From assembly GCA_053919585.1 (NCBI GenBank), contig CM132808.1: a stretch of DNA of 64,000 nt. One strand, written 5' to 3'. The stretch is from Euprymna scolopes (lineage: Eukaryota). The translations under genes and the position numbers were made by a program. Under the pieces are notes generated by a model that saw nothing but the letters and a program-made list of their open reading frames with translations, was not told the DNA's origin and searched no databases. Positions 1,973-61,362 of this stretch are shown one piece after another (position 1 is the first letter of the stretch; every line of letters begins with the position of its first letter).

Positions 1973-3070
1973 TTTTGAAAGATTTCTTCTCTGCAGTTTA
2001 CTATGGAATGTGAGAAAGACAACACTCTTCTCTTCTTGGACGTTCTTGTTGAACGTTCAAGAGTTGGCTTTCTCACTATCATTTACAGGAAGCCGACTTT
2101 TACTGGCCTCTATGTGAACTGGTCTTCTTTTGTACCTAAATCGCGTAAAATCGGCTTAATTAATACGTTGGTACATAGAGCCCTCATGATTTGTTCATCT
2201 GTTAAATTGGACGCTGAACTGGATAAGATCACGTACATTTTTATTAGTAATGGTTACCCCGAAGACCTTATTAATGATTGTATAAATAAAAAAAGTTGCT
2301 GATTTTAAATCTCCTAAAATATTTGGCCCATAAAATTCCCCGGTTTACTTAAAATTGTCATGGATAGGGGATAATGGTACAAAATTAAGTAAACAGATTG
2401 TTAGAAGTATTAATAATTGTATTTACTTTGTTTCCTTGCGTCTGGTATATACTATTAGATCTGCGTTTCCGTCTTTTTGCAAGGATTACATCCAAGCCTT
2501 ACATCAAAAATAGTAACATTATTTATCAATTTAAATGCCAGTGTGATGCTGGTTATGTCGGGAGGACTTCTTTGCATTTGAAGACTCGTATAAACCAGCA
2601 CATTCCATCCAAGATTAGACAGGGTAGAGCGGGATCTGTGAGTCTCCCTTCCTTTACAGTTTTAGACTCCGCTATTGGCCAGCATCTGGTTGAGAATCCT
2701 TGTTGTGCCAATCAGTATAAAATAGAGACGTTTGGGACTTAACAGAGTGGATTCTAAAAATCATTTAAAAATTTTAGAATCTGTCTCTATCGCAATTTGT
2801 AAACTTTCTTTGTACTGGCAGAAGGAATTGTTAAAAGCATTAAATATCTTTGGGAAACTCTGACCCCCCCCCCCCATCGCGGTGCTATTTTTATCGCTTT
2901 TTACACGCTTTATTAAATTAAATTATTGGCTTTAATCATCCTTTTTTGACACGTTTAATTTATAAAAGATCCCCCATTGCTCTTTTTTTCGTCATTAATA
3001 TTATTTCAATGCTATCGATTTCTCCTGATGAGATGATGGGTGAAGGGCTCTTGAGAGATTTCCACTTACT
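1973..3070 (+). mobile_element. Penelope-like element 3' part: RT C-terminus, GIY-YIG endonuclease and 3' pseudo-LTR, decayed
   Basis: ORF 2003-2302 (FLDVLV..IYRKPTFTGLY..NGYP) and ORF 2398-2742 (NIIYQFKCQCDAGYVGRTSLHLKTRINQH..SAIGQHL) are typical PLE motifs. Followed by an HHR-like motif and a (TA)n tail. Confidence 0.9.
3019..3058 (+). ncRNA. Degenerate minimal hammerhead ribozyme in the Penelope pseudo-LTR
   Basis: tttctc-CTGATGA-gatgatgggt-GAAG-ggctc-TT-gagaga. GAAA is mutated to GAAG and helix II is broken. Homologous to 34258-34298. Confidence 0.65.
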
Positions 3071-3072
3071 TT

Positions 3073-3138
<66 letters not shown>

Positions 3139-4172
3139 TAAAACTCAAATGGCCTTGTAATGAGTGTTGTAACCACACATCCAGTTTACGACTTCCGATT
3201 GCGCATGTGTACATAAACATATACCCATAACAGCGTAAACAAATAAACACAAATTGCTACTTTTGCAGAATTTGACCTACGGACTGAAATATTAGCGTTA
3301 TTATTTAGAAATTATTATTTAACATGGGAAGGGTGGGGATGTTTTACAACCATTCTGTATTACAACTATACTGTCGCAATATTCTTACAAATAAATCAAC
3401 TTTGACACGTTGACAACTACAAGAGCATTTTACAACGGCGATTTACCCACGTTTTTTTTTTTAATTTATTCTCCATTTTTTAACACATTTCTTAAAAACA
3501 TTCATGCATTTTCTTCTACACTACCAACATAAATAAATAACCCCGAAAATGTTTTTTTTTTACAAATAAATAATCAACACAATAAAACGTATTGTTTTAC
3601 TGTGTACGTTTTCAGCATCCCAATTGTTTTTTTTTCGTGTTTAAATTATCCAAATAAACAATTGTTAATACTTTCTGCTTTTTTTTTTACATCGTTCATT
3701 TTCACATTGTCTTAATTAGTTTTATTGATCTTATTATTAACATAAATTAAATAATTGACCCAATGGGTCATGAATGTTTGTTTAAAATAAATGAAAAAAG
3801 TTACATTTTATTTTCATTTTCTATTTAAAAAGCCATTCTTAACATGGGGAGAGCGTTTTTAACTATTCCGTACTTTCAACTAACAATTTCATTTAAAAAA
3901 GATATATCAAAATTTGAATTTAACTTTAAGTATTATGGTATCTGTTCAGTGCACATTTACCTATAAGTATGACAAACCACTTATAATTCAATGGCTGTAA
4001 GTTTTTTTTTTAAATAAACAATTATAAACAGAACGACTCATAGAAATCTATCTATATTCTTTTTTCATTTTAATATACTTTCATAGAAATGCTTCTGTTA
4101 TGTCACAAAAAGTATTTTCTTTACGTCAGAAGTGTCACGCTCATACATTAATTCCATAGCTAATCTAACATA

Positions 4173-4199
4173 CTGACCCAACGGGTCACGGGTAGTCTA

Positions 4200-4201
<2 letters not shown>
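4173..4201 (+). mobile_element. Helitron-like 3' terminus (hairpin + CTAG); an opposite-orientation end of the same family starts at ~4441
   Basis: tgaccc-aac-gggtca hairpin, then cgggtagtCTAG-t. The sequence actagactacccgtg at 4441 is the reverse complement of this end. A similar hairpin lies at ~3756. Confidence 0.55.
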
Positions 4202-4264
<63 letters not shown>

Positions 4265-4367
4265 CAGTATGTCTGTCTGTCTCCATTATTTAAAACTACA
4301 TCTCAACTGAGACGCAAAGTCACAGAGCGCACGAGGTGAGTCAGATGATTTTGTTTCTGTGGATTGT

Positions 4368-4441
<74 letters not shown>

Positions 4442-4879
4442 CTAGACTACCCGTGTCGTATATGTTATAGCTAGCTATGGAATAGTGAGTATACAGAATT
4501 AATGTATGTGCGAGGAAATAAACATGGCGACCAGTGAAAACAATACGAAATACATTGAATAATAAAGGTCTTAACATCATTGCCCTCGGACTAAATGAAA
4601 AATCCTTTATATAATGGGGGTGTATCACGTTGACAAAAAATTGAAAAACGACAAAAAGAAAAACAAATACAAGGAACGGGTGTGCATTGTACAGGTCCAC
4701 CCTATATTTTGTGTGTATTTACAGCCTTAGAAATATCAAGAAATGATAATTAATTCAGTGATATTTAACGGTGAGGCCTTTTTTTAAAAATAAATAAATA
4801 AAAAGCCCCCCCCACCCCCACCCCTACACGTTTTGAAGCGTTTCTGCGTATTTTTAATTTTATTCAGTTAACTACCGAT

Positions 4880-5553
4880 TTGATCCTGGAGTCAAGTGAT
4901 GGATCTGTGTTTCATCCATGGTGTCATATATTGGAGCAAAAGCTTTTTTGCTGTAAGGAAACAACGCTCTATCCACCATGTTGTTTTTGCTCAAATATGT
5001 GCAAGCGCAACACTCACTTCAACACATCTTTCTCATTGAGAAATATTCATGCAAAATAGTGTATGCATTGGTTCGTAACACATTCAACATATTCATGCTA
5101 TGTCATGCAACTTCAATTTACAAAGGGATAAAATGAGTTTGTGGACTTTTTCGTATTTTCTGGAACAACTGCCGAATTAAAGAAACCTAAACATTCAGCA
5201 TCAATTGTGTCTATACAACCGCGTAGTATACCACTACTTAGCCGTTATTTCCAACAGATCGGAGTCCAAATAACACTTATTATGTCATAGCTTTGTTTGA
5301 ACAGTAATTTCCCACCAGAAAACAATGTTTTATAAACGCACCAAGTTCATATTTCCCCACTGTTTTTTTTTATTTTATTTTTTTTTTAATTTAAAACAGT
5401 AGCTTAAATAACTGTTAGTTGTAAACTAATAATCCCATTTTACTCAATTTTGAAACGTGCGATTTGAAGGTTAGTACTTTATACAATCATATGTATTTAT
5501 TATTACTGAAGTCATTTATTTGTCAGGATAAGGACTTACTAATTGACGTTATA
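4880..5553 (-). mobile_element. Decayed mariner-like DNA transposon fragment
   Basis: Minus strand gives a degenerate HTH-region translation (KKSTNSF..KLKLHDIA) resembling mariner transposases. Ends in TA next to a (TA)n tract. No open ORF. Confidence 0.5.
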
Positions 5554-5607
5554 TATTGACAAGGTCTTTGTGGTCCCAATGGAGTACAGTACATCATAAA
5601 CATGAAT

Positions 5608-59653: not shown

Positions 59654-59687
<34 letters not shown>

Positions 59688-59750
59688 GTATATATATATA
59701 TAATTATAAATGGCGGAGTTAAAGGAAGAGAATTCTTTAAGAAGAGACTT

Positions 59751-59833
<83 letters not shown>

Positions 59834-59838
<5 letters not shown>

Positions 59839-60574
59839 ACAAAAGTACCCGTCGATGACTGGGTTCAAAAACAGCCTACAGAAAATTGACTCTGATTTAT
59901 GAAAGTATGATAGGTTATGAAAGGAAGGGTTGTAAATTTGGGTTGAATTTGGGGGTATGAAAACCAAAGCAAAATATGATGAAAGTAAAAATAAAATAGA
60001 TAAATCCCATAATTTATTATACCATACCTGTTCACACTGAAACACTTATCACAATATTCTGTGGATCTATATTTAAAAACCCTGTTAAACTTTGTGACAT
60101 ATTTCCATTCTATGGAGGTCAGGCGCAAACGGACACCCCATAATTTTATTATACCATATTTCTTCAAACTGAAACATAATTAACAAAGTGTACTTACGCA
60201 GATAGATATGAAAAGTCTTTATTAAAGTTTATGCCTATTTCCATTCTATGGAGGCCAGGCGCGAACGCAGACTCCACAATTTTATTATACCATCCCTATT
60301 TAAGTTAAAACATACTTATCAAAGTATTCTTATATATATCTATATCAAAAACATTTGTAAAAGTTTTTTTTAATTTTTAATTTTTTTATTTCCATACTTT
60401 TTGGATCAGGTGCGAACGCAGACCCCACAATTTTAATGAACCACCGTTCTGCCAGATCAAACATACCCATTCCTGTCTCTCGATATATCTTCTATCATTA
60501 TATATAATCAGTTTTTTAAAATAGTCAACCATATAGGAGCCTATTCGTGACCACACACACGCACACACATTCAG

Positions 60575-60580
<6 letters not shown>
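59834..60580 (-). mobile_element. Non-autonomous Helitron-like element with three internal ~135-bp tandem repeats
   Basis: 5' end tataaagctgaa(tg)n, as in the 31.6-kb copy. 3' hairpin acccagtc-atc-gacgggt then acttttgTTAG. Repeats at ~60005, ~60136 and ~60273. Confidence 0.7.
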
Positions 60581-60628
<48 letters not shown>

Positions 60629-60632
<4 letters not shown>

Positions 60633-60859
60633 GCTTGACAGATTATGAATACCCACTGTAAGGGTGCTTGCACATAAAATTTTTGTAGCAAGAGTTGTGC
60701 AATCTTCAACCACACCTCTCCTGAGTCGGAATTGATAAATACTAGTGGACAGTGGAGGTTCGGCACATACAACGCCTAGAATTCCCAAATGGTCACCCAT
60801 CTGGTACTAGCCGAGCTCAACGTTGCTTAACTTCAGTGATCTGACGAGAACTGATGTGT
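60629..60859 (-). mobile_element. 5S rRNA-derived SINE (head truncated by N block, body, (TA)n tail)
   Basis: Minus strand gttctcgtcagatcactgaagttaagcaacgttgagctcggctagtaccagatgggtgacc..gggaat. Body shared with 43035-43183. Confidence 0.9.
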
Positions 60860-61235
60860 NNNNNNNNNNNNNNNNNNNNNNNNNNNNNNNNNNNNNNNNN
60901 NNNNNNNNNNNNNNNNNNNNNNNNNNNNNNNNNNNNNNNNNNNNNNNNNNNNNNNNNNNNNNNNNNNNNNNNNNNNNNNNNNNNNNNNNNNNNNNNNNNN
61001 NNNNNNNNNNNNNNNNNNNNNNNNNNNNNNNNNNNNNNNNNNNNNNNNNNNNNNNNNNNNNNNNNNNNNNNNNNNNTACATAGCAAAACAATACTGTATG
61101 TAGATGATTATAATGCTCCCTATCTTGGGTGGAGCTTATTGGGAAGCAATAAAGAAATAGCCACTAGCATATTAAGCGATGTAAATAAAAGAATCTTAGA
61201 CGTTTAGACAATGTTAATTCACATAACAATCTTAA

Positions 61236-61362
61236 CAGCAGCCGAATAGCATAACGGTTAAGTGCGCAGACTGCCGTCTAGGTGGTTGAGTTTCAAACCT
61301 GAGGTAGTTGCTAGTCTAGCCGCACTGATGAATTGTGATATAGTATGTGGGTCAATATATAT
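61236..61362 (+). mobile_element. Second copy of the 58-kb tRNA+HHR SINE, with GAAA and helix III deleted
   Basis: gccgaatagcataacggtta..gactgccgt..gtttcaaacctgaggtagttgctagtctagccgcaCTGATGA..gtatgtgg. Confidence 0.85.

Follow-up and report, generated by a model that had tools for sequence, protein, structure and literature searches.

Why do short ribozyme-bearing elements stand so often in outward-facing inverted pairs, and is the pair itself what moves? The question is raised by a 64,000-nt stretch of the Euprymna scolopes genome (contig CM132808.1 of assembly GCA_053919585.1; G000:C26:53878001-53942000 of a 5.9 Gb genome), here called the window, which has 35% G+C and is rich in (TA)n. A sequence-only reading had listed hammerhead ribozyme motifs at 16 positions of the window, sorted them into about six families and noted five loci at which two units lie head to head with the ribozyme near each outer end. 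It proposed a set of non-autonomous elements mobilised by the enzymes of Penelope-like elements (PLEs), with the foldback as the possible mobile unit. Our answer, to which we assign a probability of about 0.65, is that the pairs are head-to-head 3′ ends of PLEs and of tRNA-headed parasites, built anew at each insertion by priming on both target strands, once at each of two start sites.

The motifs of the window were assigned to families with profiles made from genome copies, plus Rfam. All 16 positions hold a hammerhead-like motif of a multi-copy family, and the six families claimed correspond to six found genome-wide: GAGCTC, ACGT, ATCC, CTCGAG and CAGTACTG, called after their helix III sequences, and a long-helix family.

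Head-to-head pairs and their tails

The five outward-facing loci (10105, 25154, 34827, 36108 and 36924) are all present, and a sixth lies at 43300-43613. The orientation excess that they suggested is borne out elsewhere in the genome. As background we sampled 100 stretches of 10 kb at round coordinates (1 Mb) and, after hits below 20 bits had been dropped and colinear fragments merged, counted neighbours of the same family at most 1 kb apart: 20 pairs were head-to-head, 1 was tail-to-tail and 3 were on the same strand (p = 2e-5, 20 versus 1). In this sample foldbacks make up 17 of 37 ACGT insertions (46%), 1 of 15 ATCC insertions, 2 CTCGAG insertions (4 of 7 arms) and none of 8 CAGTACTG-type insertions; in most families insertions are mostly single arms or direct tandems. 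The window has ~22 arms against 87 per Mb elsewhere and is thus 3-4 times richer than average.

In every family that inverts, copies end sharply at one of two 3′ positions, the inner site A or the outer site B; B lies ~25 to 150 nt beyond A, and the segment between them is referred to here as the tail. Among foldbacks of the four young families with both ends scoreable, and with the window's own 34827 locus excluded, exactly one tail is present in 32 of 33, L009 being the one with two. ACGT foldbacks, for which the tail-score threshold was 27, have one tail in 27 of 31 cases (the reference copy L055 among them), none in 4 and two in none. Overall, one tail is found in 59 of 64 foldbacks (p ~5e-13 versus 0.5). 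When ACGT copies were selected by their tails, 16 of 19 proved to be foldbacks, whereas insertions taken without selection were foldbacks in 17 of 37 cases (p = 0.009). Of the 13 partner arms that could be scored, 12 had no tail.

The two arms also differ in length. The untailed arm reaches further 5′ in 44 foldbacks (22 of 32 young, 22 of 39 ACGT) and the tailed arm in 17 (8 young, 9 ACGT), with 10 ties (p = 0.0007); at L072, L208, L268 and L279 the tailed arm is hardly more than the tail. The arms of a pair share derived alleles, 44 over 15 CTCGAG loci where 10.2 are expected from other copies, and 14 where 6.8 are expected in GAGCTC. At the junctions, arms as a rule overlap by 0-12 nt or are separated by small gaps. 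The CAGTACTG family has no tail and no inversion in 17 loci, 15 of which end at one base while 2 run off the locus; its older relatives show no inversion in 19 loci, nor among the 8 copies in 1 Mb.

Four of the six foldbacks in the window belong to the ACGT family. In the first, a left arm at 10084-10341 (−) with a decayed hammerhead and no tail faces a right arm at 10337-10762 (+) that carries the hammerhead at 10570, a tail (score 31) and another repeat inserted at ~10616-10701. The second joins a tailed left arm (25134-25268, −) to an untailed right arm (25253-25421, +). In the fifth, the left arm (36918-37178, −) has lost its ribozyme region and has a tail score of 26, just below the threshold, and the right arm (37221-37502, +) is untailed with an intact core at 37399. 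The sixth, which was absent from the sequence-only list in its left arm (43300-43491, −; 3′ part missing), has a right arm at 43486-43613 (+) with a hammerhead at 43509 in which the G of GAAA is changed. The third foldback is of the ATCC family, probably a Neptune-type PLE 3′ end: its left arm (34641-34953, −) has a 150-nt tail and overlaps by 7 nt the right arm (34947-35242, +), which has an intact core at 35147 and whose outer end runs into N. The fourth is a CTCGAG retrozyme (412-nt unit) with (TA)n flanks, composed of a tailed left arm (36080-36395, −) with an intact hammerhead at 36156-36200 and an untailed right arm (36397-36659, +) with a tRNA-Ala-like head at ~36471-36540 and a hammerhead at 36546-36590 whose core is changed.

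At none of the five listed loci are both ribozymes intact. Measured against family majorities, core and helices are kept in 6 of the 16 motifs (27069, 35144, 36156, 37396, 44035 and 57984). Of the remaining 10, the motif at 34258 has CTGGTGA, that at 55827 is without helix II and the other 8 have a core change. Rfam Hammerhead_1 (cut-off 34 bits) matches two of the 16, at 36156-36200 (−; 46.6 bits) and, below the cut-off, at 36546-36590 (+; 32.7 bits). A strict type I descriptor finds 2 motifs in the window and 14 in 1 Mb of other DNA, with none in 20 shuffles of the window or in 3 megabase shuffles. In monomer folds of the 16 motifs compared with shuffles, only 27069 folds better (z −3.45), as expected for minimal or decayed hammerheads. 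The CTGGTGA of 34258 recurs in 19 of the 20 best copies of the GAGCTC family (L181-L200), a share that is biased because the query itself carried CTGGTGA. These copies are in line with a GAGCTC PLE subfamily that spread with an altered ribozyme core (CTGGTGA for CTGATGA), which agrees with dispensable cleavage. In the explanation favoured here, the ribozyme is cargo of the pseudo-long terminal repeat (pLTR) and not the cause of inversion. A ribozyme dimer formed between the two arms was also considered and is impossible: paired ribozymes lie on opposite strands, and there is therefore no dimerisation within one transcript.

Two proposed primings and the competing explanations

Two primings would explain four patterns, namely the single tail, the longer untailed arm, the shared alleles and the tailless family that never inverts. 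In the scheme that we propose, RNA polymerase III would transcribe the tRNA-headed elements, and a PLE protein would bind the RNA in trans and make cuts in both strands of AT-rich DNA, for the most part (TA)n. Priming would take place at A from one strand and at B from its opposite, with a single source locus supplying the RNA, probably as one molecule. The B-primed copy would often have to displace the A-primed copy and hence tend to be shorter, and the two cDNA ends would join via a few bases of microhomology. Single copies would arise from one-sided priming, and long direct arrays from multimeric or circular RNA. The scheme resembles L1 twin priming, in which priming occurs on each of the opposite target strands and microhomology joins the products into a 5′ inversion. 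L1 inversions consist of non-overlapping pieces of one RNA, whereas in the present pairs the 3′ end is repeated in both arms, which begin at two fixed sites.

Biochemical parallels come from the Anolis Poseidon element PAc (PMC11167929; this and the other papers are cited here from portions of their text). In vitro, the PAc protein, a predicted dimer, cleaves both strands and extends both, and its two internal start sites delimit the tail; ribozyme cleavage is not needed. Shared with the elements studied here are the two reverse transcriptase (RT) start sites, the cutting and extension of both strands, the AT-rich targets, the start of the open reading frame (ORF) inside the hammerhead and the dispensable ribozyme activity (compare the 19 of 20 GAGCTC copies with a changed core). 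In those portions of the PAc paper the two start sites are not tied to inverted ends, and no start-site difference between strands is reported.

One competing explanation, which we consider unlikely, is self-priming. A cDNA would fold back at its 3′ end and copy itself, or an antisense RNA would prime itself, as proposed for rotifer Penelope (PMC3846280). Such a snap-back also predicts one tail and arms that are identical at birth, some junctions are palindromic (L215, L279), and microhomology at the junction fits it. However, a snap-back repeats only the content of the first cDNA, and therefore the tailed arm must reach furthest 5′, whereas it is the untailed arm that is longer in 44 of 61 foldbacks. 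As a general route, self-priming is disfavoured.

Two independent insertions, in which a new copy targets the sequence flanking an older copy on its 5′ side and the arms are equalised by gene conversion, are more improbable still. PLEs do insert close to each other (review PMC6765202), and L033 has the look of independent neighbours, as has the tail-to-tail pair at 43488/44790. Independent events would nevertheless give 0, 1 or 2 tails at random, and the arms abut or overlap by 0-12 nt with no intervening (TA)n though (TA)n is the target. Old ACGT arms are only 66-79% alike, and gene conversion is therefore not ongoing.

Four CTCGAG loci (L001, L003, L006 and L007) have nearly one junction, which would suit transposition of the whole foldback in the manner of a miniature inverted-repeat transposable element (MITE); these loci were chosen by a foldback query, 6-11 nt of inverted microhomology underlie their junction, and the arm that carries the tail is the long one at one locus and the short one at the other three. 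Mobilisation as a unit, the reading first offered, is refuted for the copies seen: the spacer, which should then be conserved, belongs to one arm as the 5′ overhang of the longer one, inner ends are locus-specific, every other hammerhead-pair junction differs, the outer ends are two fixed 3′ ends, and a true unit-mobilised foldback at 19688-20283 keeps its centre across copies while hammerhead pairs do not.

The foldback at 19688-20283 is 600 bp long, has no hammerhead and is MITE-like, with a centre conserved in copies and 34 hits in 14 of the 100 sampled stretches. Another inverted-repeat element at 33594-34004, with arms 68% alike and copies in 6 of the 100 stretches, is probably an old MITE.

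Several points weigh against two primings. Priming on both strands is itself read from end patterns. The genomic copies studied were the best 40 hits of each family search and not random copies, and 11 CTCGAG foldbacks came via a query that was itself a foldback. A two-tailed foldback does exist (L009); outside the 33 scored loci, the young families include 6 with an inverted piece that does not reach the 3′ end and 1 that is complex, and 12 of 43 ACGT foldbacks were not scoreable for tails. Copies that are single and tailed occur often (23 of 92 in the scoring of the young families, 13 of 34 in ACGT), and the tail therefore does not force inversion. The lack of inversion in the tailless family is a contrast provided by one lineage, with p = 0.07 against CTCGAG alone. 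Arms made of the tail only, tried as proof of twin priming, amount to 4 of 32, not above random truncation, and were not counted. At the 36108 locus of the window the arms are 93.8% alike versus 94.2% to other copies and share 2 alleles versus 1.4; in 7 of 15 CTCGAG loci arm-to-arm identity lies under the family mean, and either gene conversion or a single dominant source locus could account for the shared alleles. No autonomous partner was found for ACGT in upstream or downstream flanks, or for CTCGAG or CAGTACTG in their flanks, or for any of the three by tblastn of the retrieved loci. The lack of TTTT on the sense strand of CTCGAG, CAGTACTG and ACGT elements, a point in favour of the scheme, is significant only for CTCGAG (2 of 400 shuffles); for the other two, 47% and 25% of shuffles are also without it.

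Part of this picture is already published, namely the geometry, the minimal ribozymes and the link between retrozymes and PLEs. Inverted 5′-truncated copies with a tail on one end have been described, the one-sided tail in words without counts and ascribed to endonuclease resolution or self-priming (PMC8557442, PMC3846280), and in Schistosoma dual minimal hammerheads lie 100-700 bp apart on opposite strands (PMC4209133). The origin of tandem and inverted PLE ends is named as an open question (PMC8557442). New here are the one-tail count, the arm-length bias, the shared derived alleles, the tailless family that never inverts and the SINE-like (short interspersed nuclear element-like) ACGT family. 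We found no literature with Penelope twin priming or PLE-dependent SINEs in a search with subscription journals, Repbase and supplements outside its coverage; the supplements of bioRxiv 10.64898/2026.07.22.740005 may list such elements. The one-tail rule, the arm-length bias and the tailless family make the inversion question testable in the existing in vitro system, and they speak against self-priming.

Three PLE families, two retrozymes and a SINE-like element

The proposed link to Penelope held up, but the label non-autonomous did not for three families: GAGCTC, ATCC and long-helix are 5′-truncated 3′ ends of ORF-bearing PLEs. GAGCTC copies continue 5′ into an RT and probable endonuclease ORF that begins inside the ribozyme. 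In the window, the decayed C-terminal part of such a Penelope/Poseidon-type ORF (RT thumb and probable endonuclease; 5′-truncated, with stops and frameshifts) lies at 1985-2860 (+), matching ORF pieces of L242 and L243 at 44-73% by tblastn. It is followed at 2871-3076 (+) by its own 3′ pLTR, untailed and ending in (TA)n, with a decayed hammerhead at 3019-3060. A single 3′ pLTR piece at 34133-34302 (+) has the CTGGTGA core and the ORF start (MIAERALEK) inside the ribozyme. At L243, a pLTR with hammerhead stands at both ends of the ORF remnants. The L243 ORF piece matches Pfam RVT_1 (E 8e-8), its thumb piece matches RT proteins (PF00078/PF28514/PF26215) at E down to 1e-76, and among its 165 longer homologues are many of 820-900 aa that carry RVT_1. 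For GIY-YIG there is no Pfam match on the piece; a motif VYQFKCxC...YVGRT is visible, and PF01541 occurs in 1 of 120 homologues among the matches listed. Pfam over 8 ORF pieces gave 1 real and 1 spurious match. Of 19 other GAGCTC loci, 8 are one-tailed foldbacks.

The motif at 27069, first taken for a long-helix singleton, belongs instead to a family of at least 2236 candidates. Its window copy is a single untailed 3′ end at 27034-27193 (−) with an intact hammerhead (27069-27140), ending in (TA)n. Long copies of the family have a Cys-rich linker and a GIY-YIG domain; L247 4111-4626 has atlas matches of 0.95-0.97 to GIY-YIG clusters, and direct inspection finds a CxCx5Cx5C-like motif in L247 and L245. 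ORF pieces of the long-helix and ATCC families have no Pfam match for RT; at L247 3140-3850 we recognise what are presumably RT-like motifs. ATCC copies likewise extend into PLE ORF sequence, and their helix III, read earlier as ATCC..GGAT, has the family majority GAAACTC(A/C)GCGGATT. A distant relative of this family, with helix II lost and a profile score of 13 bits only, lies at 55804-55880 (+). The ATCC element also has an Asn-rich insert inside its endonuclease region (L245 1678-2460 (−), L243 4864-5340 (−), L244 4208-4477) that resembles the N-rich inserts of rotifer Penelope (PMC3846280).

Judged by sequence, long-helix and ATCC are probably Neptune-type PLEs (clade name after PMC8557442). 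The three families share with known endonuclease-bearing (EN+) PLEs of the Penelope/Poseidon and Neptune types, as portrayed in portions of PMC8557442 and PMC3846280, (i) an ORF with RT (putative in the two Neptune-type families) and C-terminal GIY-YIG-type endonuclease (putative in GAGCTC), (ii) a pLTR with a minimal hammerhead, (iii) 5′ truncation, partial tandems and microsatellite targets, and (iv) an inverted 5′-truncated copy at the 5′ end with the tail on one end. There is no difference in kind; the tails of the two Neptune-type families are ~90 and 150 nt long, compared with the 30-40 nt described.

CTCGAG and CAGTACTG are, as known here from DNA, tandem retrozymes, with a tRNA-like head in CTCGAG and probably in CAGTACTG. 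CTCGAG is a 412-nt head-to-tail unit without an ORF, with a canonical type I hammerhead (Rfam 48.6 bits per unit). Its head, which ends ~10 nt 5′ of the hammerhead, scores 33.5 bits as an Rfam tRNA (cut-off 29 bits) with anticodon UGC and is called tRNA-Ala by ARAGORN at 80%. CAGTACTG is a 284-nt head-to-tail unit, also without an ORF, with 99.5% identity among copies and arrays of up to at least 16 units; its hammerhead passes the strict type I descriptor and not the Rfam cut-off. The CAGTACTG head has A and B boxes and is colinear with the CTCGAG head (score 62 versus a maximum of 52 in 300 shuffles), with no Rfam tRNA match. Monomers of both are self-paired (circular fold z −4.9 for CTCGAG and −3.0 for CAGTACTG versus 60 shuffles). 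The window holds a young CAGTACTG copy at 57984-58234 (−), 99.5% identical to other copies, with its A/B-box head, intact hammerhead and an untailed (TA)n end. The motifs at 44035 and 61320 are its older relatives: a single copy at 44030-44239 (−) with tRNA-like head and hammerhead, and a copy at 61082-61366 (+) that has lost the GAAA half of the core.

The 284-nt unit is present in 18 sequencing runs, 1 of them recorded as RNA and all as assembled contigs, and one RNA run with a family member carries the label mollusc metagenome. Head-to-tail joints occur in 3 of 4 runs and are compatible with tandem DNA as much as with circles. An array of at least 16 CAGTACTG units (L118-L120; C28:47350674-47355357) has units with one difference that recur every second or third place, a periodicity that may be the trace of a dimeric circular template or of subsequent duplication.

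Both families fit the non-LTR (non-long terminal repeat) retrozymes of PMC7229834 and bioRxiv 10.64898/2026.07.22.740005 in their head-to-tail units (150-450 nt), type I hammerhead and lack of an ORF; the latter source proposes that retrozymes are non-autonomous PLE derivatives. The text portions of these two sources mention neither head-to-head insertions nor, within the unit, any promoter for polymerase III or of tRNA origin. The same layout, a polymerase III promoter followed by a hammerhead in tandem copies, with the cleaved monomer keeping the promoter at its 3′ end, is found in the portions that describe Schistosoma SMalpha (PMC6765202, PMC8490949).

ACGT is the commonest of the six families, at ~37 insertions per Mb, which would amount to some 200,000 if all 5.9 Gb resemble the sample, and its copies are 72-75% alike. 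In its majority sequence the A box lies at 14, the B box at 77 and the hammerhead at 259; none of 500 shuffles contains such a pair of boxes. Compared with host tRNA genes the head scores 47 (null maximum 42 in 200 shuffles), and ARAGORN calls it only at a 70% threshold; 8 loci gave no Rfam tRNA match, and ARAGORN at default found nothing in the window. The host tRNA genes returned for this comparison were Thr, Lys and one Ser call only. A near full-length single copy, absent from the sequence-only list, lies at 44765-45200 (−); it retains the 5′ head, with the A box at ~45187-45177, and contains an internal duplication.

A large tandem cluster of tRNA-Thr-like genes (L347-L376; C11, 1.68-2.16 Mb) has 109 distinct sequences, mostly Thr-TGT and Thr-AGT.

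Is ACGT an element in its own right? The alternative, which is possible but doubtful, is that it is the solo pLTR of an autonomous PLE whose pLTR contains a tRNA-like promoter, or what is left of such a PLE that has died out. ACGT does have PLE-type ends, in PLEs the tail usually corresponds to the beginning of the following unit or ORF, and the family is old (72-75% between copies), and an autonomous parent may therefore have decayed. Set against this, no PLE ORF lies upstream on the same strand in 74 ACGT loci; the 5′ start is sharp, with 25 copies chosen by their 5′ end all beginning at one place and sharing upstream nothing but their own inverted arms; and beyond the 31-nt tail nothing is common to 19 tailed copies. 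There is no 3′ end shared with a long interspersed nuclear element (LINE) and no poly(A) or repeat tail in ACGT, which has a sharp PLE-type double end instead. In 14 old ACGT insertions no convincing set of target-site duplications was seen, with one 10-nt exact repeat; in the other five families such duplications are masked by (TA)n.

ACGT would thus appear to behave as a SINE with a PLE-type 3′ end, though it lacks the LINE-shared tail that serves as a SINE criterion. Like tRNA-derived SINEs as presented in portions of PMC4824008 and PMC10886601, it has a 5′ A/B-box head and is short, non-coding, 5′-truncating and of high copy number; those SINEs use LINE (non-LTR) partners, whereas ACGT has a hammerhead, a tail and PLE-type inverted ends. 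It differs from SMalpha in a promoter at a fixed 5′ end, a body of ~170 nt before the ribozyme, the absence of tandems, the PLE-type double 3′ end and 46% inversions. We hold as an even bet the wider claim that PLE enzymes mobilise the SINE-like ACGT family and that inverted PLE pLTRs arise when a dimeric enzyme uses two start sites on a single RNA to prime both strands of the target, which would leave elements that have just one start site unable to invert. If true, a PLE-driven SINE-like family would give polymerase III parasites a third route, in addition to those of LINE-driven SINEs and of terminal-repeat retrotransposons in miniature (TRIMs) driven by LTR elements, and would seed tens of thousands of hairpin-forming inserts per genome.

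Other repeats in the window

The repeat at 10616-10701, which splits the right arm at 10570, is short and very abundant, with 73 hits in 52 of the 100 sampled stretches, often beside (TA)n; related copies lie at 7570-7648, 8231-8311, 14687-14759, 33130-33209 and 40599-40679. ORF fragments with a LINE-type endonuclease and RT are found at 397-1467, 8342-8917, 12508-13943 and 52556-53955, and by their motifs they are probably CR1/L2-like. Five 5S rRNA-like copies (12364-12474, 43180-43295, 46936-47052, 60774-60868 and 62787-62898) include 4 above the Rfam cut-off; some share ~150 nt downstream and are read as a 5S-headed SINE family, present in 17 of the 100 sampled stretches. The tandem array at 61399-61757 has a 35-nt period (10.3 copies), and that at 60100-60366 has a 136-nt period (2 copies).

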